Shown: positions 39,698 to 55,381 of the stretch, piece after piece | Numbering within the stretch: position 1 is the stretch's first letter | How the letters are laid out: each line of letters begins with the position of its first letter | Source of the DNA: a virus | Taxonomy: Duplodnaviria > Caudoviricetes | Length of the DNA stretch: 64,000 nucleotides | Reading direction: 5' to 3' (one strand) | IMG/VR virus record: IMGVR_UViG_3300044961_000667 | The notes under the pieces: generated by a model | The model's input: the letters and a program-made list of their open reading frames with translations, nothing else | What the model was told of the DNA's origin: nothing | The model's database searches: none | Program-made: the position numbers and the translations under genes

Positions 39698-42600
39698 TCA
39701 GCCTTTGACAGGAAGCAGCGGAGCCCAGTTGTCCTTCGCGCCTGGCTCTTCCTTCGGCCGCATGGTCTCGCCCTTCTCGTTCCTCGGGAGAACCCAGTCG
39801 ATGTCCTCGACAGTGGCGTCTCGGTACTCGCTGATGCCAGGGGAGGCAACCAGCGGCTGGGGCGCCAGCCTGGTGGTCAACGACATCGTCACACCGGCGA
39901 GTCCGTCGGCAACGTCTTTCGACCCATCCTGGGGGTGATCGACCTTCTTGCGCTTCGGGTTCCACTCCAGTTGCCGCAACTCCTTCTCCAAGTGCGGGAA
40001 CGGCAAACAGTCGAACCGCTCCTCGTTGATCGCGTTCTTCAGCAGATCGTACGCGTCCGACGAGGAGTCGACCGACAACACCTCCGCCTTGTACCCCTTC
40101 GAGTTCAGGTTCTGCCTCATGTCGGCGCTGTTGTGCGACATGAAACCGTTGGCCAGATAGGACGGATCGTCCTCTACCTCCAAGTCGAAAACATCAGCTT
40201 CACCATCAGCCTCAACGCTCACCACCCTCGCGAAGATTCTTCGTCCGACAACACCAACATGCTTCTCAAGCTCAACCTGCTTGCGGGAGTACGAGAACCC
40301 AATCCTCTCCAGGAACTTCCGCCTGGCGCCACGTACTCCCACCACATACTGGACACCATCCTTGACGTAATCGCCTGGGTGTCCTCGCTCCATGATCACC
40401 AGTTTCGACTCGATGCCAAAGTCACATCGCAGCATCAACCTCACCTGGTCGGCCAGATCCCGATGCTTCGTCGACAACGAAACGTAGCCGTCCAATCGCC
40501 CAACATTTCCGTCGGTCGCGAACAGGCCCCTCAGGAATGACGCCTTCACGGCACGACTACCCCTGAGCACGGCCTCCGGAACAAGAGGTTTTCGCAGGCC
40601 ATTCTGCTCCATCCATCTCACCAGCCACCGAGCACTCACGGACACAGTCCCGAACCCAGCCCCGTCTACACCGCGATACTCTGGCGCCACACCAAACAGC
40701 CTCATGAATACAGCCTGGGCATCGACAGCCTCGTCGTCGGTGACGGTTAGCCTGACGGAGTCTTCGCCGATATTTCCGTCGCCCCAAACGAGACCAAGCC
40801 ATTCGGCCAGGGCCGGTCCCATCCGAACCGGAAGCGACCACTCCGAGAGCACACCTGCGCGAGCAGGACTCCAGCCGAGGTCTCGCTTGTCACCGACCAG
40901 CTCAACATCGGGCGCGTCCATCTCGACAGGCGACGACGCCATCCGCACCACGTCGCCTGCGCGAATCTCGTCCAGCCTACGCCACTCCCAGATTGGTTCG
41001 CGAGTCCAACCAAATTCGGATTCGCTCTCAGGCCCCCATCCAACTTGCACCTCAATCCGGTGTCGCCCGGTGCCGACCAAGCTGTCTCCGTCGGCCGTCG
41101 ACAATTTCAGTACCGGCTGTCGACCAAAGGCCCAAACATTCTTCACTGGTTTTGGCCCTGCGCGCGACTGAACTATGTCGCCAATCAGGACTTCCTCGAT
41201 CGGCAACAAGCCGCGGCTTGTGCTCACTCTCGTTCCAGCAGCCAAGCACTGGTACGTGTCCATCGTCACCAGCCCGATGTGGAAACCGTGCTCGGTCAGC
41301 TCGTAGATGAGGCGCCGCACTTCGGCCATCGGGATCTCCCCCCGGTCCGGCGGAACGATGCGCAGCGCCAAGTCGATCACGATGAACGGAACCATCTCCT
41401 TCGACTTCTTGCCGCTCGACCAGTTCGTCCTCACCACCTCGACCATCTTGGCGACGTGCCCCATCGCGAAGCCGTACGAGTCGTCAGAAAGCGCAGGGTC
41501 GAGATGGATGTGTCGCTGCGCGTCGGGATTGAACCGCGGCTTGTAGCTCAACAACGTCTTCCCGTTGACCGACCGACGCTGACGCTCCACGCACAACGCC
41601 GACCAATCGAGGGCCAGCGGCGTGGTGGGATCCCACTCCAAGCCTCCCGGCCGCGGCATGGGGCGCTTCGACGACAGCGCCTTGATGATCTTCTCCTTGT
41701 TCCTGATGTACGGCCGAATCGAGTCGGTCGCGATGCCGGCGATCTCGCGAAGCGAGCCGTCCAGGTCCTCCTCGAAGTCTGAACGAAAGTCGATCGGCAC
41801 CTCGATGATGCGTTGCTTGCCTTGAGCGACGGTGTCGGGCACCGGCTCCGAATCAGCAAGCACTCGGCTCGACACGTCGTCGGTCCCGATGACGACACGG
41901 AACTTCTGATCGCTGTACTTCTTGACGTCCCACAGCGCGTACTCGCGAACGAAGATGCGCGGGTTGTCGGCCGACTCTCGGATCTTGCGCTCGGTGAAGT
42001 CGGTCGTGCCCTTCTTCGACGAGATCGTCATCAACATGCCTGGCATCTGGCCACCACGCAGGAAGCGGGACTTCATGCGGCGCAAGATGCTGGAGTACAG
42101 CTGCGAGCCCTTGTCGATGTGCCCCCACCGCGCGTGCGACGCCTTCTGCTCGCGGGTGAACGACATGAAGTTCGTCTCGTCGATGGCTGCACCAAAGACG
42201 TTTCGACCGATGACGCTGTTGTCGGCGGACGACGCCGGCACCGCCCAGATGTTCTTCGGAAAGCGAAGCGCCTCCATCGAGCGGTGACACTTGAACTTCT
42301 CGTTGAAGTACGGGCTCACGATCAGCTTCTGCGCGAGGCCCTCCAACAGCGTCGCCATCGCCGTCTTTTCGTTGACGCTGATGCCGGCGAACACGATCTC
42401 AGAACCAGAAGCCAACCCGTACGAACGCTGCGGGTTCCTCAGGCAGCTCATCTCGTAGATCTGCCGAGCGATGACGATCTCGGCGAAGGTCGACTTGCCC
42501 CAGCCGATGGCGCCGCCGAGGACGACCTCGTGGTACGAGCCAGTGAACAGCTCGACGACGTCCTCCTTCAGCTTGGGCCACAGGCCCTTCGCGACTTCCC

Positions 42601-42841
42601 CGAAGTAGTAGTCGTCGTCGAGCCAGGTGCGGACGTCAACAACCTCGCGCTCGTACTCCGCTTCAGAGGCCAGCTTCAGGAGCGTCTTCACCCCATCCTG
42701 GGTTTCCTGCGCCTCGCGAAGAATGGTCTCGACAAAGACCTTCTCCTCCGGAGTCAGATCCTTGTAGTCGCTTTCGAGGAGCTTGATGTCCTCCTGCGGC
42801 GTACGAACGCTGATCTGTCTGCCACCGATGTCGACGATCAT
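39698..42841 (-). CDS. terL: Terminase large subunit, intein-containing
   Basis: Walker A GGAIGWGKS, Walker B AAIDETNF, nuclease HIHLDPALSDD and KDVADGLAG; about 674 aa after splicing. Confidence 0.95.
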   Translation of the reverse strand: MIVDIGGRQISVRTPQEDIKLLESDYKDLTPEEKVFVETILREAQETQDGVKTLLKLASEAEYEREVVDVRTWLDDDYYFGEVAKGLWPKLKEDVVELFTGSYHEVVLGGAIGWGKSTFAEIVIARQIYEMSCLRNPQRSYGLASGSEIVFAGISVNEKTAMATLLEGLAQKLIVSPYFNEKFKCHRSMEALRFPKNIWAVPASSADNSVIGRNVFGAAIDETNFMSFTREQKASHARWGHIDKGSQLYSSILRRMKSRFLRGGQMPGMLMTISSKKGTTDFTERKIRESADNPRIFVREYALWDVKKYSDQKFRVVIGTDDVSSRVLADSEPVPDTVAQGKQRIIEVPIDFRSDFEEDLDGSLREIAGIATDSIRPYIRNKEKIIKALSSKRPMPRPGGLEWDPTTPLALDWSALCVERQRRSVNGKTLLSYKPRFNPDAQRHIHLDPALSDDSYGFAMGHVAKMVEVVRTNWSSGKKSKEMVPFIVIDLALRIVPPDRGEIPMAEVRRLIYELTEHGFHIGLVTMDTYQCLAAGTRVSTSRGLLPIEEVLIGDIVQSRAGPKPVKNVWAFGRQPVLKLSTADGDSLVGTGRHRIEVQVGWGPESESEFGWTREPIWEWRRLDEIRAGDVVRMASSPVEMDAPDVELVGDKRDLGWSPARAGVLSEWSLPVRMGPALAEWLGLVWGDGNIGEDSVRLTVTDDEAVDAQAVFMRLFGVAPEYRGVDGAGFGTVSVSARWLVRWMEQNGLRKPLVPEAVLRGSRAVKASFLRGLFATDGNVGRLDGYVSLSTKHRDLADQVRLMLRCDFGIESKLVIMERGHPGDYVKDGVQYVVGVRGARRKFLERIGFSYSRKQVELEKHVGVVGRRIFARVVSVEADGEADVFDLEVEDDPSYLANGFMSHNSADMRQNLNSKGYKAEVLSVDSSSDAYDLLKNAINEERFDCLPFPHLEKELRQLEWNPKRKKVDHPQDGSKDVADGLAGVTMSLTTRLAPQPLVASPGISEYRDATVEDIDWVLPRNEKGETMRPKEEPGAKDNWAPLLPVKG
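40130..41248 (-). mobile_element. 373-aa intein with LAGLIDADG homing endonuclease
   Basis: N-splice DTYQ/CLAAGTRV, C-splice FMSHN/SAD; WLGLVWGDG and FLRGLFATDG endonuclease motifs. Confidence 0.95.
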
Positions 42842-42844
42842 CGG

Positions 42845-43564
42845 CTACTCCTCGCTCGACTCGTCACCGCCAGCCGCAGGCTCGACCTGCGGATCGTCGA
42901 TGGGCTTCGACTCCGCGTCCACGACCTCTTCCGCAGCCGTCTTGCTGATCCTCATCAGCCGCTCCGCGAAGTTCAGCGCCTTCCGCCGTGAAGCCGGATC
43001 GTTGATGACCTTCGACACCTCCTCGCGGCCGTACCTCGCGCTCAGGTCCGCCGTGAGATGGGTGTCGACGTCGAGCTGACCGATGTGGCGCTTGTCGATA
43101 CCCAGGTCCATCTTCAGCTCGGCGCGGTTCTTCAGAATCCGCATCGCGATGTACATTTCGGCGCCGGTCCCCTTGAAGAGCTTGTTCAGCTTCTTCTCGG
43201 TCGCCATGTCGATCTCGATGCGCTCACACTGCCACTTGTAGAGCTTCTCCAGCTCCGCAAGCTCATCGAGGCCGCTCTCGATCTTGCTCACGGCCTTGTG
43301 CAGCACCTCGGGCATCCGCACCGAAACCAGCTGCCCTGGCGGCAACGACTCGCGGTACGACCCGAGCATCGCCACCATGCGGTCGCGCGTGATGTCGGTG
43401 TACTCCTTGGCGTCCTCCTGGATGTACTTGGCGACAGCAGCGAGGGCCCACCCCGCGAGGATGCGCTTGTGCACCTCCTCGAAGCAGTTCAACCCACGGA
43501 GTCGGACGAACCGCGTGGGGCGGGCGGTCGGTCTGGTGACTGGGCGAAGCCTCTCGGTAGTCAT
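42845..43564 (-). CDS. Probable terminase small subunit
   Basis: Helical basic protein with N-terminal HTH-like segment directly upstream of terL. Confidence 0.6.
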   Translation of the reverse strand: MTTERLRPVTRPTARPTRFVRLRGLNCFEEVHKRILAGWALAAVAKYIQEDAKEYTDITRDRMVAMLGSYRESLPPGQLVSVRMPEVLHKAVSKIESGLDELAELEKLYKWQCERIEIDMATEKKLNKLFKGTGAEMYIAMRILKNRAELKMDLGIDKRHIGQLDVDTHLTADLSARYGREEVSKVINDPASRRKALNFAERLMRISKTAAEEVVDAESKPIDDPQVEPAAGGDESSEE

Positions 43565-43576
43565 CGACAGCTCTCT

Positions 43577-43594
43577 CGCGCAATCGATTGCGCG
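43577..43594 (-). promoter_or_regulatory. Palindrome CGCGCAATCGATTGCGCG copy 5
   Basis: 18-bp perfect palindrome upstream of terS start 43564. Confidence 0.7.
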
Positions 43595-43610
43595 TCCTCA
43601 TCAGCCGGAA

Positions 43611-44021
43611 CTACTTCTCGGACAGCCCGAGTTCCTTCAGCGCCTGTTCGAGCGTACCACCGTCCAGCAGCGCAGCCATTCTGGTGGCATCGCCGACCGT
43701 CGGTTCTGCTCCCGGCTTCCTGGGCTTCCAGAACAGCCTGTCGCCGATCTGCACCAGCTCCTGGTGGTGCGTCTTCACGAAGCGCAGGAGGCCGCAGTCG
43801 CACAGCTTGACCTGCTTGTCTGCGTCACCGCCCTTGCCCAGGACCGTGAACGCACCCTTGCCGAAGCACCGTCGACAGCCCTTCTTCGCGGAAAGGGCTA
43901 CCTCCGCCGGCTTGACTGGCTCCAGATCGTTCAGCCCGACTCCCAGGGAGTCTCGGACCTGCTGGTCGAGCTTCTTGTAGGGCTCGGGCACTTCAGGCGC
44001 AGCCTGCTCGGGGGTGTTCAC
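43611..44021 (-). CDS. Zn-ribbon hypothetical protein
   Basis: GTG 44021 overlaps ParB stop (GTGA); CRRCFGKG and CDC motifs. Confidence 0.55.
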   Translation of the reverse strand: MNTPEQAAPEVPEPYKKLDQQVRDSLGVGLNDLEPVKPAEVALSAKKGCRRCFGKGAFTVLGKGGDADKQVKLCDCGLLRFVKTHHQELVQIGDRLFWKPRKPGAEPTVGDATRMAALLDGGTLEQALKELGLSEK

Positions 44022-44848
44022 GCCGCCGCCTCCGGGGCCGGCTTCTCTTCCGCGGCAGCCGCCACCGGCTCCTTCGGCAGATCCTCGACGTCCTTCTCCC
44101 AGTCCTTGAGCACGCGGTGCAGGAACTGGTTGATGTCGACCTTCGCCTTCATCGAGCGATCGGCGATCGCCTTCGCCTGCTTGAACGTCTCGGCGTCGCA
44201 CGCGATGTAGAGGTGCTCCTTCGAGCCGTACGTGAACACCATGAAGTTCTGCGTGATGGTGTCGCCGTACTCGTTGAAGAGGTGGTTCAGCACCGCCGAC
44301 AGATCGTCGATGGTCTTCACCTCCTTCTTCATCTCGTCGAACTTCTCCAGCATGTCGCCCGACAGCCCCGTGCTCTCCAGGGCCTCGCGGACTCCGCCGA
44401 CGAGCTTCTTGAAAGCCGCCTCGTCGGTGAAGCCCATCAGGTTCTGCATGGCGTCTTCGCCGTACCGCTGAGCCAGCTCGTTGTAGAGGCCGACCATCCT
44501 CTCGGGATCGAGCTTGCCCTTGATGACGTTGAGGCGGACGGTGACGAACTTCTGAAGGTCCACGTCCTTCCACTTCGTCTCCGACAGGACGGCCACCGGC
44601 ACCTCGGCGATGCCGAGCGACTTCGCTGCTCGCCACCGGTGCTCACCACCGATGATCCTGAGCTTCCCGTTCTCCATCGGGATCGCCTGGATCTGGTCGA
44701 TGAACCCGACGTTCGAGATCTCCTCCGCGAGCCGATTGAACTCGCGGTCGCTCATCTGGTTCGGGTTCCAGGGGTTCGGTTCCAGCTCGTCGACCGGCAC
44801 GAGCTTCGACACGTACACCTGGGGGATGTGGCTGTTCGTCTCGCTCAT
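44018..44848 (-). CDS. ParB/sulfiredoxin-like N-terminal domain protein
   Basis: VPVDELEPNPWNPN...GFIDQIQ...IIGGEHRWRAA...NVIKGKLD. Confidence 0.92.
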   Translation of the reverse strand: MSETNSHIPQVYVSKLVPVDELEPNPWNPNQMSDREFNRLAEEISNVGFIDQIQAIPMENGKLRIIGGEHRWRAAKSLGIAEVPVAVLSETKWKDVDLQKFVTVRLNVIKGKLDPERMVGLYNELAQRYGEDAMQNLMGFTDEAAFKKLVGGVREALESTGLSGDMLEKFDEMKKEVKTIDDLSAVLNHLFNEYGDTITQNFMVFTYGSKEHLYIACDAETFKQAKAIADRSMKAKVDINQFLHRVLKDWEKDVEDLPKEPVAAAAEEKPAPEAAA

Positions 44849-44858
44849 CGTTCCTCCG

Positions 44859-46013
44859 TCAGCTGGTTGCGTACTTGCGAATCACTTCGCAGACCTGATC
44901 GGCCTGGCTCTCCAGCATGTGAGGCGACGAGGGGAGCAACACGCCCTTGCGAGCGATCTCCTCGGACACGGAGAACTTCCCGGCCTGCCACTGGTTCCGG
45001 TAGATCGGCAGGCTGGCCATCGGCTCGAAGAACGGGCGCACTTCGATCTTCTTCTCCGACAGCTCCGCGAGGAACTTCGGACGATCGATGGGCCGCTCGA
45101 ACAGCAGCGCGTTGAGCCAGTACACCGGCTTGTTGCCCGCGATGGGCTTCTGCACGGTCACCAGCTTCCGGTTCACGAGATCGGCGAGGCGCACTGCGTA
45201 CCAGTCTGCCACCTGGCGCTTCCTCTTGACCACCTCGGGCAGGATGTCGACCTGCGCAGAGCCGATCGCGCCCATGACGTTGCCCATGTTGTACTGCCAG
45301 GCGATCTCGTCGTGGTAGTAGCGCCGCTTGTCGTCGGGGCGACCGAGGTCTCCGAGCTTCTTGATGCGGTGGTACACCTCGGGGTCGTTGGTCAGCGTCA
45401 TCCCGCCTTCGCCGACGCCGATCATCTTGTCGCCGCGGAAGCTGAAGCTGGATGCGTCGCCGACCGCGCCAACCATCACGCTGTCCATGTCGGTGGCGGA
45501 AGTCGCGTTGGACCGCAGAACGCCGATGCTGGCTCCGTGGGCCTCGGCACAGTCCTCGATGAGGATCACGCCCGTCTGGTCGCACATCTTCCTGAGCTTC
45601 ATCGTGTCGCGAGCCGGGTGCCCGTAGATGTGCACGAGAACGATGGCCGTGACGCCTCCGGCCTCGATCTCCTTCTTGGCCGCCTCGAAGTCCATGCCGA
45701 AAGTCTCTCGCTCCACCTCCACGAGCGTCACGCGAGCGCCGGCGTGCACCACCGCGTTCGGCGTGGCCACGCACGTGTAGTTCGGCACGAGCACGCGACC
45801 GCCAGTGACGCCGCAGCCGGCGAGGGCCAAGGTGATGGCGGTCGTCCCGTTGCAGTTCGCGAACCCATGCTTCACGCCGAGCAGCTCGCAGAACTTCCGC
45901 TCGAACTCGTCGACAAAGCGACCACGAGTGAGCCAGTTCTCCTCGAAGCACTTGGCCACGTTGGCCATCTCGTTGCCGCTCAGAAACGAATCAGTCAATC
46001 GCACGACGGACAT
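44859..46013 (-). CDS. DegT/DnrJ/EryC1/StrS PLP sugar aminotransferase (perosamine synthase-like)
   Basis: NGTTAITLAL; LVHIYGHP; LIEDCAEAHG; FSFRGDKMIGVGEGGM with PLP lysine; LLPSSP. Confidence 0.95.
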   Translation of the reverse strand: MSVVRLTDSFLSGNEMANVAKCFEENWLTRGRFVDEFERKFCELLGVKHGFANCNGTTAITLALAGCGVTGGRVLVPNYTCVATPNAVVHAGARVTLVEVERETFGMDFEAAKKEIEAGGVTAIVLVHIYGHPARDTMKLRKMCDQTGVILIEDCAEAHGASIGVLRSNATSATDMDSVMVGAVGDASSFSFRGDKMIGVGEGGMTLTNDPEVYHRIKKLGDLGRPDDKRRYYHDEIAWQYNMGNVMGAIGSAQVDILPEVVKRKRQVADWYAVRLADLVNRKLVTVQKPIAGNKPVYWLNALLFERPIDRPKFLAELSEKKIEVRPFFEPMASLPIYRNQWQAGKFSVSEEIARKGVLLPSSPHMLESQADQVCEVIRKYATS

Positions 46014-46026
46014 CTCTACCTCCTGG

Positions 46027-46758
46027 TCAGTTCAGCTTCCGGAAAGCGAAGACCCGATAGCGCGGCTTCAGGAACCACAGCAGCTTCTCCCCCAGCCGGG
46101 TCAGCCAGTAGGAGACAGCGTTCTTCCCCAGCAGGCGGAAGATCGCTCCGTCGACTCGATTGACGACCTCGACTGCATCGAGATCGAAGCCAACCTGGAA
46201 GAAGTTGAACTTCATCTTCGACTCGGTCTCGATGTCCTTGTAGCCGAGCCCCTTCTGGAAGGCCGGCACCAGCGGAGGCGCCCACTCCAGCACCATCGCC
46301 ACCGTCCCCGGCTTGCACTTGGCCAGGTAGCCGAACAACGCCTCGCGGTCGTCGTGCGGCATGAAGTTGTAGACGGTGAGCAGCGTGACGACGTCGGCGA
46401 TCCCGATGTGCGTCTCCACGGCAGCGGACGGCACGGTCCCGGCCTCGAAGAACAGCCGCATGTTGGCGCTCTTCGTTGCCCGCTCGACGAACTCAGCGCG
46501 ATCGAGTCCGACGGTCTTCGTGTTCGCCCCGCCCAGCTCAGACAACAGCTTGGTGAAGGTTCCCACGCCGCAGCCGATGTCGACCACCATCGACGCGCCC
46601 TGGAAATACGACTTGAGCCGGCGCAACGCGGCGCTTCGCACCTCGAACGAGTACCCGTCCTGCCACCTGTTCAGGAAGTGACAGGGGTCTCCGCCCTCGG
46701 CGTTCCGCTTCTCCCAGAACGCATCGATCTCACTCTTTGTCCACATCCTGGTCAGCAT
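46027..46758 (-). CDS. Class I SAM-dependent methyltransferase
   Basis: VVDIGCGVG motif I, VGLD motif II. Confidence 0.9.
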   Translation of the reverse strand: MLTRMWTKSEIDAFWEKRNAEGGDPCHFLNRWQDGYSFEVRSAALRRLKSYFQGASMVVDIGCGVGTFTKLLSELGGANTKTVGLDRAEFVERATKSANMRLFFEAGTVPSAAVETHIGIADVVTLLTVYNFMPHDDREALFGYLAKCKPGTVAMVLEWAPPLVPAFQKGLGYKDIETESKMKFNFFQVGFDLDAVEVVNRVDGAIFRLLGKNAVSYWLTRLGEKLLWFLKPRYRVFAFRKLN

Positions 46759-48187
46759 CTTGGGGCAGCTCGTCTTTGGGCTGAACGCTCTTGGCGGTCA
46801 GGCGTGGGTCTTCACTCTGATGATCGTCGTCGTAGTACCGAAGCGCCGTGTCGTAGAGGCACAGCATCGGGAACGATCCGCGGTTCGACCGCGAAGCGAA
46901 GATCATGTTCTTCGTGTACGCGCGGTTGATGACTTCCTTCTGCAGCTGACTGAAGGTCAGGCTCGTCAACCCTTCCTTCACGCAGCGCTCTACCAGCTCG
47001 GCGAGCCGCTTGGCGGGCTTCCTCGGGTACGAGCGCTCGTTGATCGTGGCCAGCATCCTCGCCATGCCCGTGTCTCGGCTGTAGTGATCGGCCGTCCACT
47101 GCGACACGTCGGCGAGCTTCTCCTTCAGCTCGTCGTGGTGTTCCATCATGTACCGCAGGAGCGTGACTCCCTCCTCGGTGGACTTGAACAGCAGCGGGTA
47201 GCCAGGCTTGAGAATCTTCTTCTCGTGCCCGTAGTCCTGGAACGCGACCATCAGCCCCGCGTACAGCCACTCGTGCGGCGAGCTGGGGAACATCTTCAGT
47301 GACTGGATGAAGATGCCGTAGTGACAGCGCGCCATCTGGCGCCACATGTCGCGCTGCGACAGGCCCGTGTGGATCTCGACAGCGCCCTGGCGACGCCCTT
47401 CCATCACCTTCGTCAGCCGCGGGTTCTCCCGAGCCGTACAGATGATGACCTTCACCTCGCGACCGCTGCGGAACAGGTAGTCGGCCAGCTCGATGGCGCG
47501 TTCTCCGCCCTTCGTGTTGGTGAACCGCCCCGAGAAGAAGAAGGTCGGCACCTTCTCTTTCTCAACGCCTTCGATGGCCGCGGTCACCTCCGCCGGCGAG
47601 AAGGCGATCGGCACCACCTGCAGATTCTTGTCGATGCGGTTGAACCACGACGGCGACATCGTCAGCCTGGCCGCTTCGAGCACCGCCTTCTTCTGGAACT
47701 CGCTGAACAGGAACGTGTGACAGCTGGCGTACCCGGTCTGATGAAACAGCAGGTTCGTCTCTTCGGTCTGCAGCTCATCGCTGCCGACGTACTTGGTCGA
47801 GAAGTCCCAGATGTACACCGGCACGGGGCGATAGCCGCCGCCACCGAACACGTTGAAGAACTCCGCGAGCCGACCACCGATGCCGGCGTTGTTCGTCACG
47901 ACGAAGTCGACAGGCCGAGAGCCCCAGATCGGGTTGTACTTGATCAGCTTGTCGTAGAAGACCATCTCGTGCTCGTCGCGCGTGGCGACGAAGTCGTACG
48001 GGATGGTCTCAACCCCAGGGATGGGCTCCTCTTCCTTGCCCTTCTCCCCGTACCTGTGCGGAACGAACCAGGTCACGAAGTGGCCCTGGCTCGCGAGGAA
48101 CTTGGCGAACGCCTTCGTGAGGATGAACGACGAGTCAGCCCGGTAGTCGGACGGGAACTCGTAGCTCGGGAAGATGAGCGCTCTCAC
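46730..48187 (-). CDS. GT-B fold glycosyltransferase 1 (GT4-like, degenerate EX7E)
   Basis: FFFSGRFTNTKG; K-X7-E (KMFPSSPHE); paralogous to 49270..50712. Confidence 0.75.
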   Translation of the reverse strand: MRALIFPSYEFPSDYRADSSFILTKAFAKFLASQGHFVTWFVPHRYGEKGKEEEPIPGVETIPYDFVATRDEHEMVFYDKLIKYNPIWGSRPVDFVVTNNAGIGGRLAEFFNVFGGGGYRPVPVYIWDFSTKYVGSDELQTEETNLLFHQTGYASCHTFLFSEFQKKAVLEAARLTMSPSWFNRIDKNLQVVPIAFSPAEVTAAIEGVEKEKVPTFFFSGRFTNTKGGERAIELADYLFRSGREVKVIICTARENPRLTKVMEGRRQGAVEIHTGLSQRDMWRQMARCHYGIFIQSLKMFPSSPHEWLYAGLMVAFQDYGHEKKILKPGYPLLFKSTEEGVTLLRYMMEHHDELKEKLADVSQWTADHYSRDTGMARMLATINERSYPRKPAKRLAELVERCVKEGLTSLTFSQLQKEVINRAYTKNMIFASRSNRGSFPMLCLYDTALRYYDDDHQSEDPRLTAKSVQPKDELPQDADQDVDKE

Positions 48188-49149
48188 TCAAAGCACCAGC
48201 CACCGTTCTGGAGGTACCACTCGACCGTCTTCTTGAGGCCCGACTTGAAGTCGGTGAACGGCCGGTCGACGTACTTCTTCAGCTTCGAGGCGTCAGCCAG
48301 CAAGTGGTTGACGTCGAGCGGACGAATGCGCGACTGGTCGACACGCACCTCGCGGGTGAACTTGACGCCCTTCTCCTGGAGAACGTCCATCGTCCACTGC
48401 GCGATGTCTGACACCTTGTGCGTCTCGCCGGTGCCGATGTTGATGACCTCTCCGAAGATGTCGTCGCGCTGGGCCAGCTCGCAGGCGATCTCGGCCGCAT
48501 CGTCGACGTAGACGAAGTCGCGGAACGAGGCCAGGTTCCCCAGCTTGATGACGTTCTCCTTCACGGCCTGGCGGATGATCTCCGGGATCACGTACGGGTG
48601 CGTCTCGCGCGGCCCGTAGCAGTTGAACTGCCGGAAGATGATCAGCTTCAGCCCGCGCTCGTACTGCCACACCCACGCCAGGCGCTCTTGGGCGAGCTTG
48701 GAAACAGCGTAGGTGGAGTAGGGGTTGAGAGGCGACGTTTCGCTCAGGAAAGTCCCCTTGCCGTCCCCGTACAGCTCACTGGACGAGTACAGGATGACTC
48801 TCGGCTTGTGGTCCGACTTCACCACCGCCTCGTAGAGCGCCATGCTGTCGCCGACGTTCGAGTCGAAGAACACCTTGGGCTGGTCGAACGACTTCGGGAT
48901 GTACGGCTCCGCGGCCAGGTGGAACACCACGTCGATGCCGTGCTGGTCGATGAACTTCGGAAGGACCGAGCCGACCGGCTGAATGCACACCTTCAGCATC
49001 GGGTCTTCCGGCAGGTGCTTCTGCGAACCGGCCCGCATGTCGTCGACCACCACGACACGGCACTCCCGGCTCAGCAGCGAGCGAACCAGGGAGGAGCCGA
49101 TGAAACCCGCACCGCCAGTGACCAACACCGTCTTGCCAGAGAGATTCAT
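48184..49149 (-). CDS. NAD-dependent NDP-sugar 4,6-dehydratase/epimerase (extended SDR)
   Basis: TGGAGFIGS; HLAAEP; SSSELYG; YAVSK; FNCYGPR. Confidence 0.95.
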   Translation of the reverse strand: MNLSGKTVLVTGGAGFIGSSLVRSLLSRECRVVVVDDMRAGSQKHLPEDPMLKVCIQPVGSVLPKFIDQHGIDVVFHLAAEPYIPKSFDQPKVFFDSNVGDSMALYEAVVKSDHKPRVILYSSSELYGDGKGTFLSETSPLNPYSTYAVSKLAQERLAWVWQYERGLKLIIFRQFNCYGPRETHPYVIPEIIRQAVKENVIKLGNLASFRDFVYVDDAAEIACELAQRDDIFGEVINIGTGETHKVSDIAQWTMDVLQEKGVKFTREVRVDQSRIRPLDVNHLLADASKLKKYVDRPFTDFKSGLKKTVEWYLQNGGWCFE

Positions 49150-49192
49150 TTTCAGTCCGCGTCGTTCAAGAGGTCAGTACTGCCCTCGAACG

Positions 49193-49221
49193 GCCATACC
49201 GTCCATGATCTGCTCTGTCAA
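49193..49221 (-). promoter_or_regulatory. Sigma70-like promoter inside the glycosylation cluster
   Basis: TTGACA-N17-TATGGC in the 120-bp gap upstream of the dehydratase. Confidence 0.5.
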
Positions 49222-49269
49222 CGCACGAGAGCCAGGCAAACCCGAGAGACGCCAGGGGTTTGGCCAGCC

Positions 49270-50712
49270 CTACCCGCGCTTCATGTGGAGCTTGGGCCCG
49301 TCGCACATGTCGACGTACCCGAACGACGTCAGCATCCACTTCATCGCCAACGGCGAGATGTACTTGAAGTCCGCCTGAGCCCTGGATCGAGCGCTCATCG
49401 CCTTGTAGACGACGGAGAGGTCGCTCACCTCGGGCCACTGTTCGGCCTTCACCGCCTCTTCGAGAAGCCCGTACGCAGGACTGATGCGCTGCACAGTCTC
49501 GATGTTCCGCTTGGCGACCGGCTCCATGAACTGCTTCACGGCCGCGTCCCAGGCACGAGCGACATCGATGGTGCCCCACGGCTCGGTGAACTCGATGAGC
49601 TTCTTGCCCCACTGCGCCTTCACCTCATCGAAGTTCTTCGCGACGTACGCCAGCTTCACTCGCAGGTCAGCCATCCCCTTCGCGATGAACGGGTAGTCCT
49701 TCGGCAGGCGGTTCCGAATCCACACAGTGTCGGTCACCACGGGGATCTGCCCCGAGCGAATCGCCTCCATGTAGGCCAGGCCGGTGCCTTCGTAGTCGCA
49801 GGCGCACACCAGCACGTCACCTTCGTGCAGCGACTCGATGTAGCGCCTGTGGCCGACCCCCGTTTCCAGCTGGACCTGCTGCTCACCGAAGGGATTCTCC
49901 TTCGGAGTGTGCTGCGTCTTGAAGACTCCCTGGATCGGGAATCCCTTGCTGGTCAGCTCGTACAACTGCTTGGCCACCTGCTCCAGGTGTCGCTTCCCCT
50001 CCAGTGAGCCACCGTGGAAGACGGCAACCTTCCCCGTCTCCCGCCGGCGAGCCGCACGCTTCTGCTCGAACTCGTCGCGCTGCTTGTCGATGGGCGGGTA
50101 GTCGGCGCACGCGCGAATCACGTACGTCCACTTCATGATCCGGTCGACCATCGACGGCGACATGCAGCGGCGGACGACACGAAACAGTTCGTCACGGTCG
50201 TACTCGTTCATCACGAACACCGGACCGACAGCCGCCGCCGAGGAGATGAGCGCATACCCCGCCTCCTCGCGCATCGTCGGCAGGCGATCGTCCAGGCTGG
50301 ACTCGGTGTAGTACGTCACCACCGGAACCTCGATCTGCTGGTACCACTTCCCCGGCGGCACGGTGAACGCCAGCTTCAGCGCAGCCGAGTGGAAGAACTT
50401 CTGGTTCAGCACGTAGTCGAACAGCACCTTCCCCTTCTTCGGGAGAAGGGGCGTCATCGTCTCCATCGAGATCGGCGGGAAGTCGAACTGGCTGATGAAC
50501 GGGTCGCCCATCGGCAGCGTGTTGATCCACGGCTTCTGGAAGTACGAGTCGTCCCAGTTCAGCTCGTTCTTGTTGGGCGGGACGACCCACTCGCAGTAGT
50601 GCCGCGAGCCGATCGCATCCAGGCCCTCCAGCACCGCCTGCATGTTGTTCATCATGCTGTTGCCGGAGAGATCCTTCGACGTGTACAGCTCGATGAGACT
50701 CAGGAAGCGCAT
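49270..50712 (-). CDS. GT-B fold glycosyltransferase 2 (GT4-like)
   Basis: Start ATG 50712 (TGATG overlap); FHGGSLEGKR; canonical EX7E EGTGLAYMEAIRSGQIPV. Confidence 0.8.
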   Translation of the reverse strand: MRFLSLIELYTSKDLSGNSMMNNMQAVLEGLDAIGSRHYCEWVVPPNKNELNWDDSYFQKPWINTLPMGDPFISQFDFPPISMETMTPLLPKKGKVLFDYVLNQKFFHSAALKLAFTVPPGKWYQQIEVPVVTYYTESSLDDRLPTMREEAGYALISSAAAVGPVFVMNEYDRDELFRVVRRCMSPSMVDRIMKWTYVIRACADYPPIDKQRDEFEQKRAARRRETGKVAVFHGGSLEGKRHLEQVAKQLYELTSKGFPIQGVFKTQHTPKENPFGEQQVQLETGVGHRRYIESLHEGDVLVCACDYEGTGLAYMEAIRSGQIPVVTDTVWIRNRLPKDYPFIAKGMADLRVKLAYVAKNFDEVKAQWGKKLIEFTEPWGTIDVARAWDAAVKQFMEPVAKRNIETVQRISPAYGLLEEAVKAEQWPEVSDLSVVYKAMSARSRAQADFKYISPLAMKWMLTSFGYVDMCDGPKLHMKRG

Positions 50713-51749
50713 CACTTGCTCCAGTCCTTCGCGTTCTTCAGCGACTCCTCGATGTACTTTCTCACGTCGCCCTTCACCTCGTCCCACAGCTTCGCGCCCT
50801 CGTCATCCGTGTTCCAACCGAACTGCTTGGCGCAGATGTCCAGGGCTTCGTTCCTCCACCGAATCGGACGCTCGTTGGGGAGCAGCAGAGCGGACTCGAA
50901 GAAGAACATCAGCATCCCCATCTTGAAGGGGTCGATGTTCCGCTCCGTGCCCACCTTCGAGAGCGCGTTCTTGCCGCGGTAGGTGTGCAGGTCGAGCCCG
51001 TACCAGTCGACCGTGTCGGCCATCTCGATGTCGCCAGGCTCGACAACGATGCCAGGCCACGGAATGGGCTCCTGCTTCGGCTGGTCGATGAGCGCCATGA
51101 CGATGGCGCAGATCAACATCTCCTCGTCGCCCAGCATGCACTTCCGCACGAGCCGCCAGAGGCAGCCCTCGACGATCTGCTGCGTCCAGGGGTTGGTCGC
51201 CTCGGCTCGCGTGGTGATGACCCTCACCAATCCGTGACGAGCCAGGAACTCCTTCGCTCGGTGCGCCGCCATGCAGATGCGAGACGCCTCGATGTAGTCC
51301 TTCGCGTCGAGCGCCTTCTCCAAGCCCGTCACGGAGTACCACTTCGTCGTCTTCAGGTTCTCGTCCGCGATGGTGTAGAGCCAGCCCGCCTCCTTCGACT
51401 TGGGCAACGTCGCCAGGTTCGCGATGAGCGAGTACAGCCCCTTCATCTGCTCGGGACGCATCGGGCCTGCCGTCTTCATCATCGGCCACGTCTTGGCCTC
51501 GGCGTAGACCCGCGGCATGAACTCCCACCCCAGGTCCTCGACGCAGATGATCGGGATGCGCTTGCACAGCGCAATCCGCTCCTCCGTGCCGTGGGACACC
51601 ATGCCGGCGGCCGTGGCCAACGCCTTCTGGACCTCAGTCCGCCGCAGGTGCTTCTGGAAGGCGGACTTCAACTCCGCCGGGTGAACCTTCGACTTCCGTG
51701 GCCCCTCGAAAAGGGCCACCTGGACTGCTGCTTTCTGAGCCACTGACAT
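50712..51749 (-). CDS. Helical protein resembling the RarA/MgsA C-terminal lid domain, without ATPase
   Basis: KSAFQKHLRR...KRIPIICVEDLG resembles RarA SALHKSIRG...RRLVRIASEDIG; no Walker motifs. Confidence 0.55.
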   Translation of the reverse strand: MSVAQKAAVQVALFEGPRKSKVHPAELKSAFQKHLRRTEVQKALATAAGMVSHGTEERIALCKRIPIICVEDLGWEFMPRVYAEAKTWPMMKTAGPMRPEQMKGLYSLIANLATLPKSKEAGWLYTIADENLKTTKWYSVTGLEKALDAKDYIEASRICMAAHRAKEFLARHGLVRVITTRAEATNPWTQQIVEGCLWRLVRKCMLGDEEMLICAIVMALIDQPKQEPIPWPGIVVEPGDIEMADTVDWYGLDLHTYRGKNALSKVGTERNIDPFKMGMLMFFFESALLLPNERPIRWRNEALDICAKQFGWNTDDEGAKLWDEVKGDVRKYIEESLKNAKDWSK

Positions 51750-51796
51750 CTCCCTCTGCCCTCAATGGGCGCTTCATCAAAGTCCATGAACCACAG

Positions 51797-51835
51797 AAGC
51801 CATTGTAGCCAAAAACTGGCTGAAAACAATGGCTT
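51797..51835 (-). promoter_or_regulatory. AT-rich nested inverted repeat overlapping a sigma70-like promoter
   Basis: AAGCCATTGT-N19-ACAATGGCTT with inner AGCCA/TGGCT; minus strand TTGTTT-N16-TACAAT. Confidence 0.55.
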
Positions 51836-52091
51836 AGGGCTCGCCACTCATCGAAATCGCCTGGGCCATCCCCTGCGCCTTGGCGGACAACAGGACCATC
51901 TCTCCAGGGAGTGCCTGGAGCATCGTCCTCACCTCTTCCTCGTCCATCGGCTCATCATCTCGAACGCTCTCGACGAGCTTCACCCAGCGGTCCAGCAACT
52001 CCCTGGCTGAGCGAAGCTCGTCGAGCAACGTCGTCTTGGTGAGCGGATAGAAGTGGCCGAGGGCTGTTGGATCCAGCTTGGGCCGCGGCAT
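51834..52091 (-). CDS. Hypothetical protein
   Basis: 85 aa helical ORF. Confidence 0.5.
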   Translation of the reverse strand: MPRPKLDPTALGHFYPLTKTTLLDELRSARELLDRWVKLVESVRDDEPMDEEEVRTMLQALPGEMVLLSAKAQGMAQAISMSGEP

Positions 52092-52094
52092 CGA

Positions 52095-52994
52095 TCACCC
52101 CGCCGCTTCTTCTTCGCCCTCGTCGAGAGCGCCCAGGCTTCCGGCGACGTCAGCGCCGCAGAGGATCTCCTTCGCCTCGGGGTCGACCGCCACGATGCGA
52201 ATGCCCAGGAGCTTCTCGAACTTGCGCATGAACTTCGACACGTTCGCCTTCTTCGTGCCGCGCATGGCGTCGTTCGTCGCGAGCCAGTCCTGGCAGATCA
52301 GCTCCAGGAGGTAGCCCTTCTTGTCGGAGCCAGCGAGTTCCTTCGCCCGCTCCATGGCCGCGGTGACCGTCTGCAGCTGACCTTCGTAGAGGCCGAACGA
52401 GATGTGCGACAGCTTCTCGATCTTGTCCTTGTCTCCGTCGGAGTCGCTGGAGCCGGCACCGGCCTTGTCAGCAGCCTCCTTCTCCTTCTTCGCCTTGAGC
52501 ACGGCACGAGCCTCGTCGGCGAGCATCGTCGACGACATGTCACGAGCCTTCTCGATCCACTCGTCGGCGTTGGCCGCGCTGACCACGCCGACCAGCTCCT
52601 TCACCTTCGTCCAGCCGAGGGGACGGATCTTCTCGATCACGGTCTCGTCGCCCAGCTCGACGCCGAACCAGCTCCAGATCGAGATCAGGTACTGAGCCTT
52701 GCGGATCGCGAAGTCCAGCTCCTTCTCGACGTACTCGTTCCAGCTGGCGTAGCCCCACTGCAGGTAGAGCGGCTTGCCGTCCTGGCCGCCGTTCCACACC
52801 TTGTAGAGCAGCTGCGCCAGCTCGAAGTACGCGTTGTCGATCGTGTTCTTGAGCGTGACGATCCGACCACGAATCAGCTCGGGGTCTTCAGCCACCTCAC
52901 GCGGAATGCCCGTGGCGCCGTTCAGCACCACCACGTTGTCCTTGCCGAGGACCTCGGCGTCAACCGTCTGCTCTCTCGACTTCTTGCTTCCCAT
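52095..52994 (-). CDS. DUF3102-like helical DNA-binding protein
   Basis: FELAQLL...GYASWNEYVEKELDFAIRKAQYLI pattern; RHH-like C-terminal segment; start chosen at ATG 52994 (SD AAGGAG). Confidence 0.55.
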   Translation of the reverse strand: MGSKKSREQTVDAEVLGKDNVVVLNGATGIPREVAEDPELIRGRIVTLKNTIDNAYFELAQLLYKVWNGGQDGKPLYLQWGYASWNEYVEKELDFAIRKAQYLISIWSWFGVELGDETVIEKIRPLGWTKVKELVGVVSAANADEWIEKARDMSSTMLADEARAVLKAKKEKEAADKAGAGSSDSDGDKDKIEKLSHISFGLYEGQLQTVTAAMERAKELAGSDKKGYLLELICQDWLATNDAMRGTKKANVSKFMRKFEKLLGIRIVAVDPEAKEILCGADVAGSLGALDEGEEEAAG

Positions 52995-53307
52995 TGTGTG
53001 CTCCTTCTCGTTCATCGGTGAAAACCACTTCCTCACAGCGGATCTCCACCAGATCGTTCTGACTCTGGTGACCAGTCCGATTCATCAGCTGCCCGGCGAC
53101 GATCGCGTAGCCGCCCTTCCTCGCTCGATCCCTGCAGATCGAGACAAGCCCTCCATACACGTTCACGCGAACCCAGGTGGCCGCGCGCCCCTTTCCCTCC
53201 ACCGCCAGGAGGAACGAGCACGCCTGCTCTCCTCCGTTGGTCGCGCCGAAGTTGATGCTGCCGCCGATGTTGCCGGCCACGACGACCGAGTTGATCCCTC
53301 TAGCCAC
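52960..53307 (-). CDS. ssb: Bacterial-type SSB OB-fold without acidic tail
   Basis: MARGINSVVVAGNIG...TWVRVNVYG...IVAGQL resembles E. coli SSB N-terminus. Confidence 0.75.
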   Translation of the reverse strand: MARGINSVVVAGNIGGSINFGATNGGEQACSFLLAVEGKGRAATWVRVNVYGGLVSICRDRARKGGYAIVAGQLMNRTGHQSQNDLVEIRCEEVVFTDEREGAHNGKQEVERADG

Positions 53308-53947
53308 GCTGGTCTCCTTGCGTGCGTCGGACCCACAAGGCCCGCGCCACAACGTACGCATCCATCTGGTCGTCACCGCCTTCTTCCTTCGGCGGGAACG
53401 ACAATCCCCGCGCGAGAAGCTGCTCGCGCACTTGTTCCTTGACCGGCTTCACCTCAGCCCTCTTCGTCTTCTCCCACTTGCCGTCGACCTTCTTCCGAAC
53501 AGACTTCTGCTGGATGACGATCCCCACGTCCTTGCGCGCAGCCTGAGGCGGGATGGGCGTCGCGACGACACCGAGAGCCAAGAACAGCTGACACTTCGTG
53601 AACCCCTGCAGCTCGGCCAGCGGCTCTCGGCCGAACTGCTTGCCGAACGCATAGCCTTCGATGGCCACCTCGGGCTTCCCGAGGTCAGCGTGCTTCTTGA
53701 TCAACCCCAGCACCGAGTTCGCGATGCCGATGACCCGCTCCACGCGCTGCCGCTCGTTCTTCCCCGACAGCTGGTAGCCGAACACCTCGTACTGCTCGGC
53801 CACGCCGTCCGGCCTCAGCACCGCCACCGCGGTGTGGGTGAGCGACATGTCGAGCCCGACGATCTTGGCGGAGAGCGGAGCCGGCTTCGGCTTGAGCGCT
53901 GCCAGGAGATCCTCCTGCTCAGGAGATGGACGAAGATCGTCTCTCAC
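53300..53947 (-). CDS. ruvC: RuvC-like Holliday junction resolvase
   Basis: IVGLDMSLTHTAVAV; VAIEGYAF; DQMDAYVVA acidic triad. Confidence 0.88.
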   Translation of the reverse strand: MRDDLRPSPEQEDLLAALKPKPAPLSAKIVGLDMSLTHTAVAVLRPDGVAEQYEVFGYQLSGKNERQRVERVIGIANSVLGLIKKHADLGKPEVAIEGYAFGKQFGREPLAELQGFTKCQLFLALGVVATPIPPQAARKDVGIVIQQKSVRKKVDGKWEKTKRAEVKPVKEQVREQLLARGLSFPPKEEGGDDQMDAYVVARALWVRRTQGDQRG

Positions 53948-54888
53948 GGGGAGTCACCCAGCTTCGTCTTGCAGCCGAAGCACTTGGTCACGAGCTGACA
54001 CTCCTTGGCCCGGTCCGTCTTGGCGTTGTCGCAGACGGTGAGGCGAGGAGGCAGCTCGACGTCGCCGCCGATCCTGATGCCGCGGCGAATGGTCGTGATC
54101 ATCGACAGGACGTCATCTACCAGCTTCTGGTCGTACTCGACCTCGTAGACGCGCATGGCACGGAACCCGTAGCCACCCTTGTTCTGGTAGACGATGAGGC
54201 CGTCTTTCTGCCGCAGGCCAGTCATCCACATGTACACGTTCGTCTGGATGACGTGCGCGACGTTGGGCGACATGTCGACCTTGTTCTTGAACCCGTCCGG
54301 GTTGATCGACTTGAACTCGACGATGCGCTTGCCGTCTCCGAGGTCCAGGATGCCGTCAGGGTGACCGCGCAGCTTGTACTGCTGGTTCTCGACCTCGATC
54401 TCCCGGTAGAGGAACCACGAGCCACCACAGTCGGTCACCGCGTAGACGCCGGGTTGCTCCTCGATCACCTTCTTGCCGTCGCACAGCTTCGGCCTGCCGA
54501 TCGGCACCGCGTCGGTGCCGTGCATCTTGCCGCAGTCCATGCACTTCCAGAGGCCATAGAGCACTCCATGGGGCCCCAGGAACTCGTTCTGCATCACGAA
54601 GTGCCACCCGGAGCCGATGCCGTAGGTCAGCTGCTCATCCGGCGTGATGATGTCGGACCGACGCACTCCGCAGACACCAGCCAGAACCTCTTCTCTGGCG
54701 CAGAGGTACCCAAGCGACGAGACTCGAAACCACGCATCCGCGGAAGGGGGCTCTGAGTCGCCGGCGTATCGAGCCGTTCGCCTCAAGAACTCCACGAGGG
54801 ACTTGTCTCGAACACCCTCAGCCGGAACTTCGGCGGGCTTCCCGGCCCGCCCATACAGCATCTCGTGAATGAGATCTGCGAACGCCAT
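53944..54888 (-). CDS. Cas4-like PD-(D/E)xK exonuclease
   Basis: GHPDGILD...IVEFKS...QTNVYM; one N-terminal and three C-terminal Cys, plus a CMDC/C..C ribbon. Confidence 0.85.
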   Translation of the reverse strand: MAFADLIHEMLYGRAGKPAEVPAEGVRDKSLVEFLRRTARYAGDSEPPSADAWFRVSSLGYLCAREEVLAGVCGVRRSDIITPDEQLTYGIGSGWHFVMQNEFLGPHGVLYGLWKCMDCGKMHGTDAVPIGRPKLCDGKKVIEEQPGVYAVTDCGGSWFLYREIEVENQQYKLRGHPDGILDLGDGKRIVEFKSINPDGFKNKVDMSPNVAHVIQTNVYMWMTGLRQKDGLIVYQNKGGYGFRAMRVYEVEYDQKLVDDVLSMITTIRRGIRIGGDVELPPRLTVCDNAKTDRAKECQLVTKCFGCKTKLGDSP

Positions 54889-54899
54889 TCACATCTCCT

Positions 54900-54917
54900 C
54901 GCGCAATCGATTGCGCG
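54900..54917 (-). promoter_or_regulatory. Palindrome CGCGCAATCGATTGCGCG copy 6
   Basis: 18-bp palindrome immediately followed by AGGAG and ATG 54888. Confidence 0.7.
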
Positions 54918-54939
54918 CCCGTCATCAAGGTCCAACCGC

Positions 54940-55311
54940 TCAACGATGAGCGGACTTCACCGACATCGACATCATCTCTTCGATCGTGGGCTCGCCTTCG
55001 ATCACCCCGAAGATCTGGTCTTCGGAAACGACACGCCAGGACCTGCTTGCGCCATCCTGGTGGTAGCTCTTGTCGTTGAACTGGTTGCCCATGTAGCAGT
55101 CGAACGCCACCAGGTCGCCGACCTTCACGTCGTGCACGACCGGAACGTTCTTCTTCGTCAGCCCCTGGCCGAGAGCCACCACTCGACCGAACCTGAGCCG
55201 CGCCTCCTTCTGAACGGGGATCAGGATTCCCGCCGCCGTCTTCGTCTCGGTGGGAAGCGGAATGTCTTCGATCTGAACGAAACCGTGCAGCGGTCTCAGC
55301 TTTGGGGCCAT
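54940..55311 (-). CDS. groES: GroES-like co-chaperonin
   Basis: KLRPLHG...ETKTAAGILIP...GRVVALGQG...VKVGDLVAF...EDQIFGVIEG; start ATG 55311 with SD GGAG. Confidence 0.92.
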   Translation of the reverse strand: MAPKLRPLHGFVQIEDIPLPTETKTAAGILIPVQKEARLRFGRVVALGQGLTKKNVPVVHDVKVGDLVAFDCYMGNQFNDKSYHQDGASRSWRVVSEDQIFGVIEGEPTIEEMMSMSVKSAHR

Positions 55312-55381
55312 GAAGAGCGGACTCCGTTGAGGGTCAAAAGCGTCGACTGTCAATCACAGAATCCGCCCTTCGTCCACCGCA

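Follow-up and report, generated by a model that had tools for sequence, protein, structure and literature searches.

The virus record IMGVR_UViG_3300044961_000667 (Duplodnaviria; Caudoviricetes), analysed here over a stretch of 64,000 nucleotides (the window), carries upstream of its terminase genes an operon of seven genes which probably makes a methylated 4-amino-4,6-dideoxy sugar and transfers it, beside a second sugar, onto a macromolecule of the phage. As for the acceptor, the best reading, tentative and at somewhat under an even chance, is that the phage DNA is glycosylated at selected sequences with the assistance of the ParB-like protein encoded in the same operon. The cluster, described before in a first-pass annotation of this DNA, is no singular oddity; it is one version of a widespread, uncharacterised module that also occurs in cultured phages. 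This module constitutes a well-defined subset of the phage glycosyltransferases (GTs) that come without a known priming enzyme, and comprises a GT-B/winged-helix family, an obligate ParB subfamily, an MgsA_C-like partner and interchangeable sugar cassettes. Its cultured carriers (DLP3/DLP5, RHph_TM16, RcDurkin and KellEzio) make the question of the acceptor directly testable.

The operon and its sugar-tailoring enzymes

Pfam, PHROGs and NCBIfam searches confirmed seven co-oriented genes, with the domains first ascribed to them, on the minus strand from 51749 down to 44018. In this order they encode an MgsA/RarA C-terminal-domain-like protein, GT-B 2, a 4,6-dehydratase, GT-B 1, a methyltransferase, a DegT aminotransferase and the ParB-like protein, and they are tightly spaced (-1, 120, -4, -29, 13 and 10 nt). 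The packaging genes do follow, as had been described, with a 137-aa Zn-ribbon gene standing between ParB and terS, and then terL.

The dehydratase, an extended short-chain dehydrogenase/reductase (SDR) acting on nucleoside diphosphate (NDP)-hexoses (48184..49149, minus strand; Pfam GDP_Man_Dehyd, 2e-51), scores 165 bits with TIGR01181 (dTDP-glucose 4,6-dehydratase) and 160 bits with LegB, GalE coming behind at 119 bits. All scores fall below the equivalog cut-offs that would fix the substrate (165 versus 365 for TIGR01181, 160 versus 475 for LegB and 70 versus 415 for GMD). In NDP-hexose 4,6-dehydratases, a Glu next to the catalytic Ser/Thr removes the C5 proton. The window protein has the Rossmann GxxGxxG motif (GGAGFIGS), the catalytic Ser with its adjacent Glu (SSSE) and the YxxxK motif (YAVSK), as found in this class; aligned to E. 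coli RffG, it shows S-S-E in place of T-D-E, which resembles the T-S-E pattern of GDP-mannose dehydratase and keeps the Glu needed for dehydration, and YxxxK is kept as well.

The aminotransferase (44859..46013, minus strand), a pyridoxal phosphate (PLP) enzyme of the DegT/DnrJ/EryC1 family (Pfam 281 bits, 1.6e-83), has GDP-perosamine synthase as its best PDB match (1e-51) and reaches 265 bits with the LegC family, for which the equivalog cut-off is 420. It has the PLP fold, with the Schiff-base lysine in SFSFRGDK, and its top matches (perosamine synthase, LegC, PseC, DesI and ArnB) are all C4 enzymes, from which we infer that it acts at C4. The profile, PDB and motif evidence thus agrees with the dehydratase plus DegT route that had been proposed earlier, and NDP-4-amino-4,6-dideoxyhexose is well supported as the predicted product class.

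The third tailoring enzyme is a class-I S-adenosylmethionine (SAM)-dependent small-molecule methyltransferase of 243 aa (46027..46758, minus strand; Pfam Methyltransf_25/23/31). It has the class-I SAM fold, its ESM-Atlas neighbours are all class-I methyltransferases, and its PDB matches are weak and limited to generic class-I, O- and other methyltransferases; no similarity to TylM1/DesVI was detectable with phmmer against PDB sequences at E up to 0.1. The expectation of a methylated amino sugar agrees with the class-I enzyme; its description as cationic is not supported. Neither a nucleotidyltransferase nor an acyltransferase is present in the cluster, and the methyltransferase occupies the place usually held by an acyltransferase in such pathways.

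To judge by the families they belong to, the dehydratase and DegT enzyme would convert a host NDP-hexose (dTDP-Glc, GDP-Man or NDP-GlcNAc) to an NDP-4-amino-4,6-dideoxyhexose, which the methyltransferase would then methylate on N or O.

Two glycosyltransferases with an additional C-terminal domain

GT-B 1 (485 aa; 46730..48187, minus strand) and its paralogue GT-B 2 (480 aa; 49270..50712, minus strand) belong to the same broad family. Neither sequence has a PDB sequence match, and Glycos_transf_1 is their sole Pfam match, a weak one in GT-B 2, the true start of which is the ATG at 50712 overlapping the upstream stop. In the AlphaFold2 (AF2) model of GT-B 1 (predicted local distance difference test score, pLDDT, of 93), Foldseek finds glycogen synthase, PimA, SPS, BshA, MshA, PglA and WaaG as PDB neighbours (E ~1e-12); two Rossmann-like domains and GT4/GT5 structural neighbours place the enzyme in the GT-B group, of the retaining type. 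An exhaustive search recovered 241 representatives of the GT-B 1 family, nearly all of 450-510 aa, and homologues of GT-B 2 (P0006-P0012) were found in contexts with ParB and terL.

An additional basic C-terminal domain of ~90 aa is present in 79 of the 80 aligned members of the family (pI 9.2 in the window protein). In GT-B 1 this domain (residues ~386-472) models as a winged helix; its Foldseek matches are weak (E 0.05-0.4) and consistent, falling on winged-helix DNA-binding domains and on kleisin/MukE-type domains. According to such modelling, both GTs carry a predicted C-terminal winged-helix domain.

Comparison with relatives suggests a division of labour in which GT-B 1 would transfer the tailored sugar and GT-B 2 a second sugar, probably supplied by the host. 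As described below, GT-B 1 diverges along with the sugar cassette and would therefore handle the variable sugar, and GT-B 2 stays conserved and so would handle the constant one.

ParB, its packaging frame and the distribution of the module

The ParB-like protein (44018..44848, minus strand; phrog_26387, 2.7e-65) matches Pfam ParB_N with 42 bits, and its GGEHRWRAA aligns with the GERRWRA of Noc, as in ParB/Srx proteins. HTH_ParB of Pfam has no match in it, a phage-specific conserved C-terminal domain replacing the helix-turn-helix (HTH) of ParB; nor does it look like a partition ParB, no ParA having been seen among the scanned window neighbours. Its subfamily has 128 relatives in IMG/VR and was surveyed in 80 ParB-centred loci. 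A GT is present in 45 of these, and in the other 35 the order ParB-unk313-terS-terL is kept without GT; homologues of unk313, a gene described further below, occur in 38 of the 80, upstream of ParB both with and without GTs. Since the frame occurs without GT, the sugar and GT genes form an island, a variable cassette inserted between unk313 and ParB. Seen from the other side the linkage is complete: the ParB subfamily was found in all 16 assessable neighbourhoods of the ~480-aa GT family, and it survives the rearrangements observed in three loci (L101, L107 and L114). A ParB gene beside a GT had been taken as the mark of a DNA-modification locus; the linkage itself stands (16/16), but ParB is a constant component of the packaging frame that is also found where there is no GT.

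The 345-aa product of the first gene (50712..51749, minus strand) has no sequence-family match. Its ESM-Atlas model matches an MgsA_C-containing viral cluster with template modelling (TM) scores of 0.69/0.73, in agreement with the RarA-lid-like character first assigned to it. Homologues are found in L013, L014 and L016, and adjoining ParB in L009-L012, and clear PF12002 (MgsA_C) genes in L114. In L009-L012, from an uncultured phage, the homologue (35% identity) lies directly downstream of, and overlaps, a 317-aa ParB_N gene; these contigs are of at most 4.8 kb, and no GT was identified in their visible part.

Among cultured phages, homologues of GT-B 1 adjoin a homologous ParB in the Arthrobacter phages KellEzio, Kitkat and DanielleIgnace. 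The gene order is PIG-L, WcaG, WecE, methyltransferase, GT, ParBc and terL in Stenotrophomonas phage DLP3, SDR, aminotransferase, GT, ParB and terL in Rhizobium phage RHph_TM16, and GT, ParB and terL in Rhodobacter phage RcDurkin; the window terL is 31-35% identical to the terL of these cultured phages. Many metagenomic phages repeat the GT-ParB pattern. In a GT-centred scan of IMG/VR, all eight loci have ParB within ~4 kb and all eight a DegT gene, with SDR in 7/8 and methyltransferase and GT-B 2 in 4/8 each, and two further, distant members of the GT family adjoin ParB, one of them together with clear Pfam MgsA_C genes. Neighbourhood clustering found several families enriched with the GT: DegT (18/20 loci), SDR (19/20), MgsA_C-like (13/15), PIG-L (9/12) and a dCTP-deaminase/dUTPase-like gene (5/5).

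The closest relative, L013, is 64% identical to the window in ParB, 58% in terL and 62% in GT-B 2, and only 24% in GT-B 1, and its tailoring genes differ: a DegT enzyme distinct from that of the window is accompanied by a radical SAM enzyme and a flavin reductase. A different cassette accompanied by a divergent GT-B 1, with the other genes conserved, is the pattern of diversifying glycans. The same combination of DegT, radical SAM and flavin reductase, instead of dehydratase, methyltransferase and DegT, is seen at L013:2677-5771 and in L115, and could represent either a different sugar pathway or a radical-SAM step on the acceptor.

DNA as the proposed acceptor

Under the favoured reading, the GTs would act on the double-stranded DNA of the phage itself, once it has been replicated and either ahead of packaging or in the course of it. 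The DNA would be held or presented by the ParB-like protein, perhaps with the help of the MgsA_C-like protein, and contacted by the winged-helix domains of the GTs, and the modification would be sequence-selective and not global. Several features point to nucleic acid: the winged helices, the MgsA_C-like partner and dUTPase-like neighbours, the recombination genes grouped with the operon, and a distribution indifferent to the type of host envelope; in particular, the occurrence of the module in phages of both Gram-positive and Gram-negative hosts fits a universal substrate and not a host envelope. Precedents exist for several of the components. ParB-like proteins without a DNA-binding domain activate phage thymine dioxygenases on double-stranded DNA, and the commonest neighbours in the dioxygenase clusters are GTs (31%), ParBs (27%) and terminases (19%) (PMC13229309). 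Phage GT-A/GT-B enzymes related to lipopolysaccharide (LPS) GTs add hexose, N-acetylhexosamine (HexNAc), heptose and hexuronic acid to 5-hydroxymethylcytosine (5hmC) (bioRxiv 10.1101/2023.12.21.572611), and ~65% of such phage GT contigs are without a known priming enzyme (Pyle et al.). The ParB/GT neighbourhood pattern is known from the literature; this particular family is uncharacterised, as are its partners and sugars, and no described phage modification matches, as the first-pass annotation had stated.

Several observations weigh against DNA as the acceptor, or limit that reading. As noted earlier for the window, no TET/JBP or hydroxymethylase of ThyA type was found in the operon or in the scanned neighbours, a walk of ~19 kb past the window end included. 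PF12851 (TET_JBP) was found in none of five cultured relatives and in none of 50 IMG/VR records (13 of them with a completeness of 90% or more), in a search run without positive control and so of unverified sensitivity; ThyA was found in two of the 50 records and in none of the five cultured relatives, and at least six essentially complete GT-positive genomes are without TET/JBP, ThyA or ThyX. The fold of GT-B 1 matches generic GT4 enzymes only: in the comparison with phage DNA GTs that the first-pass annotation had proposed, T4 AGT/BGT and JGT/TAGT were absent among the 50 best PDB structure matches. Winged-helix domains also mediate protein contacts. The ParBs nearest to that of the window (43-55% identity) are mostly without GT, in the bare unk313-ParB-terS-terL frame, and a position beside ParB may be no more than a favoured place for insertions into the packaging module.

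To the same side belongs the composition of the window, in which CTCGAG and GAGCTC are absent (55 and 44 expected), CCCGGG occurs twice (26 expected), and TTCGAA and AGGCCT are also absent (16 and 13 expected). Such selective purging of sites implies that the DNA is exposed to type II enzymes, and consequently argues against a blanket substitution or shielding; the absence of 25 of the 64 palindromic hexamers from DLP3 is a further point of this kind. GTAC, TCGA, TGGCCA and CGTACG are enriched in the window, and this bias resembles a trace left by particular restriction systems of the host. Site avoidance is nevertheless compatible with sparse marks placed after replication at selected sequences, such as have been reported for phage thymine dioxygenases. 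As regards the choice between DNA and capsid that the first-pass annotation had left, the loss of CTCGAG, GAGCTC and CCCGGG disfavours blanket DNA modification.

Other base-modification genes were also surveyed. ThyX occurs in 15 of the 50 IMG/VR records, irrespective of GT; none of the five cultured relatives has 7-deazaguanine genes, and TGT, QueC, TET_JBP and ThyA were not found in DLP3. A divergent ThyX-like open reading frame (ORF) of ~300 aa (E 3e-6 to 7e-12) lies directly after terL in DLP5 and DLP3 (73394-73921 in the DLP5 record G036; also in G041 and G033), and could be relevant to base modification.

The DNA of DLP3 was reported by its authors to be resistant to all 15 enzymes tried, and that of DLP5 to be cut by only 4 of 36. 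When sites were counted in the full DLP3 sequence (MT110073.1), 10 of the 15 enzymes proved to lack any site, against an expectation of 7-41; together with the missing hexamers this means that the resistance is mostly site avoidance, and as evidence of modification it was largely rejected. The informative enzymes are only SmaI (68 sites), ClaI (18), EcoRI (7), NdeI (4) and XbaI (1), and the failure of SmaI and ClaI to cut despite their 68 and 18 sites was counted in favour of DNA. Across loci, the median observed/expected ratio of palindromes is 0.70 in GT-positive and 0.55 in GT-negative loci (p = 0.045), a weak difference that is confounded by relatedness.

A bolder form of the proposal, which we regard as unlikely, is that the GT-B/winged-helix enzymes, aided by the ParB-like and MgsA_C-like proteins, attach sugars, a methylated 4-amino-4,6-dideoxyhexose among them, directly to DNA without a 5-hydroxymethylpyrimidine, at selected sequences just before packaging. 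If true, direct attachment would be a new chemistry, with the first amino-dideoxy sugar on DNA. A DNA target would enlarge the list of DNA modifications by amino-dideoxy sugars and by a new route of attachment, and would broaden the recently discovered part that ParB plays in assisting enzymes that modify DNA.

Alternative acceptors

Mycobacteriophages and giant viruses decorate their virions with glycans, and a serious, though less likely, alternative is that here too the GTs add a variable amino-sugar glycan to proteins of the phage, be they of the capsid, tail, portal or packaging machinery, ParB being a mere packaging neighbour. The island sits in a packaging frame that also occurs without it, its sugar cassette varies between close relatives as expected of a surface antigen, and the avoidance of restriction sites suggests unshielded DNA; winged helices can bind protein, as the kleisin and cullin matches indicate, and WcaG was detected by virion proteomics of DLP3. 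A protein target is at odds, however, with the lack of a convincing Ser/Thr-rich tail or mucin-like protein near the cluster in the window, and with an operon whose boundary sets it apart from the structural genes, in one group with genes for a Cas4-like exonuclease and a RuvC-like resolvase. The GT-ParB linkage that persists through rearrangements, and partners (MgsA_C-like and dUTPase-like) that point to nucleic acid, also count against it. Were it true, virion glycosylation would be widened well beyond mycobacteriophages.

An auxiliary or moron cassette that alters host surface polysaccharides (LPS, capsule, teichoic acid) or sugar-nucleotide pools, for superinfection exclusion, seems improbable. 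The enzymes do resemble those of O-antigen/LPS pathways (perosamine synthase, LegB/LegC, WaaG- and PimA-like GTs), and the authors of DLP3 and DLP5 read such genes as membrane-modification morons, but the machinery of an envelope pathway is missing: bearing out the earlier claim of no transmembrane segment and no Gtr-type machinery, no membrane segment was predicted in 12 proteins, with no 19-residue window at 1.6 on the Kyte-Doolittle scale, and there is no flippase, polymerase or lipid-carrier GT. Besides, the same GT family and gene order are found in phages whose hosts have different envelopes (Actinobacteria and Proteobacteria), a winged-helix domain is nothing that an envelope GT requires, and the unit in which the operon lies belongs to the lytic cycle of a T4-like jumbo phage. 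Still more improbable is a functionally unrelated ParB and GT pair brought together by a hot spot of recombination, situated between the replication and packaging modules, at which unrelated accessory cassettes accumulate, the product being a small-molecule glycoside or something else. The frame conserved without GTs in 35 of the 80 ParB loci and the widely varying contents of the island would be expected of such a hot spot; an invariant GT-ParB linkage (16/16) and a recurring MgsA_C-like partner are, on the other hand, hard to obtain from position alone. Set beside these alternatives, ParB-assisted glycosylation of DNA is still the reading we prefer.

Genomic setting and limits of the transcription unit

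The window has a GC content of 63% and nearly all of its genes lie on the minus strand. The phage encodes a T4-type portal, prohead protease and major head protein, and a replication/recombination module with primase, helicase, a UvsX/RecA-like protein, resolvases and the Cas4-like exonuclease. Its proteins could be placed on metagenome contigs of the Joint Genome Institute (JGI) of up to 200,091 bp, for a phage of ~200 kb. DNA near-identical to window positions 43000-55500 was found in metagenomes from hot springs or mats, bioreactors, wastewater and soil; contigs from RNA libraries span most of the operon at low depth, which may reflect DNA carry-over and does not by itself prove transcription. 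When the cluster was compared with 50,697 phage records by megablast and blastn, only short ParB matches were returned. The ~19 kb walked past the window end encode Dam, DUF5131 (Gp37/Gp68), an HD-type dNMP phosphatase and UvrD with an intein; this UvrD-type helicase gene (L017:799-3699) lies ~7-10 kb past the window end and adjoins the other three.

The seven genes are part of a larger run from 53036 to 39698, in which there are two wider gaps (84 and 120 nt), all other spacings are of at most 17 nt, and no minus-strand terminator was found. The palindrome GCAATCGATTGC is present in six exact copies in the window, where none is expected (at 4721, 13021, 19152, 29409, 43580 and 54903). Two of them bracket the unit, one upstream of the Cas4-like exonuclease gene (54903..54914) and one between the Zn-ribbon gene and terS (43580..43591), and both of these, which were checked, are intergenic. 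The former likely marks the upstream boundary of the transcription unit to which the cluster belongs, or a site of its regulation, the latter is the downstream boundary of the unit, and the element is a candidate phage promoter, operator or terminator.

The first-pass gene list is extended by an intein in terL and by two upstream genes (51834-53036), which belong to the conserved frame. These are, on the minus strand, unk313 (phrog_17202, 3e-21; 52095..53036), of 313 aa, and an 85-aa gene, unk85 (51834..52091), kept in the closest relative and 37% identical to an ORF of L014. Downstream of ParB and likewise on the minus strand, the Zn-ribbon (CxxC...CxC) gene, read as an ORF at 43611..44021 and 40% identical to its L013 equivalent, has a GTG start at 44021 that overlaps the ParB stop. 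It is followed by the probable small terminase subunit gene terS (42845..43564, 239 aa), so named by its position, always between ParB and terL; its product is 61% identical to that of L013 and 35% to that of L015, with a weak match to DLP3 gp105. The terL gene (39698..42841, minus strand, 1047 aa) has exteins 31-58% identical to the terL of DLP3, RHph_TM16, RcDurkin and L013, and contains a LAGLIDADG intein (Pfam LAGLIDADG_3, Intein_splicing and Hint_2 at residues 532-904). The intein, of ~370 aa, is absent from the close relative L013, and terL genes of relatives reach 1326-2244 aa, which suggests multiple inteins.

Comparison with known systems

The cluster is not of the GtrABC seroconversion type, as there is no hydrophobic segment in the 12 proteins scanned. 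It shares features with mycobacteriophage virion glycosylation, in which soluble phage GTs and a methyltransferase reportedly build a variable glycan on a phage macromolecule. That system is not known to be linked to ParB, MgsA_C or terminase genes, and a Ser/Thr-rich acceptor tail was not found near the window cluster. The sugar pathway itself is shared with bacterial GDP-perosamine, dTDP-viosamine and LegB/LegC biosynthesis, where an extended-SDR 4,6-dehydratase is followed by a DegT C4 aminotransferase. The viosamine pathway of Mimivirus also has an extended-SDR 4,6-dehydratase and then a DegT-family C4 aminotransferase. Unlike the bacterial 4-amino-4,6-dideoxyhexose pathways, the window enzymes score far below every equivalog cut-off, and a methyltransferase stands in place of the nucleotidyltransferase and N-acyltransferase.

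The nearest counterparts are the cultured relatives, namely DLP3/DLP5 (gp96-gp106), RHph_TM16, RcDurkin and KellEzio/Kitkat/DanielleIgnace. Their ParB is homologous to that of the window (36-40% identity), with a GT of ~480-530 aa from the same broad family immediately upstream, and DLP3 and TM16 also have SDR and DegT tailoring genes, with or without a methyltransferase. They are siphoviruses of 58-100 kb with a single GT, whereas the window phage, of ~200 kb and with T4-type portal, protease and capsid, has two; DLP3 in turn adds a PIG-L deacetylase. The blocks of these phages are biochemically uncharacterised, and have been read by their authors as morons or, for the methyltransferase, as Erm.

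Post-replicative DNA glycosylation clusters of phages (C5-methyltransferase, C5-MT, or T-dioxygenase 5mYOX plus GT; Burke 2021, Pyle 2023, O'Toole 2026) resemble the window in having one or more GTs, sometimes with a sugar epimerase, whose folds are akin to those of GTs for LPS and small molecules; often they also have a ParB-like protein in which no DNA-binding domain is obvious, and a terminase nearby. No 5mYOX, C5-MT or ThyS was found in the window and its relatives, unlike in those clusters, and the sugars reported for them (hexose, HexNAc, heptose and hexuronic acid) include none that is amino-dideoxy or methylated. What sets the window further apart from them is the winged-helix domain of its GTs together with the MgsA_C-like partner.

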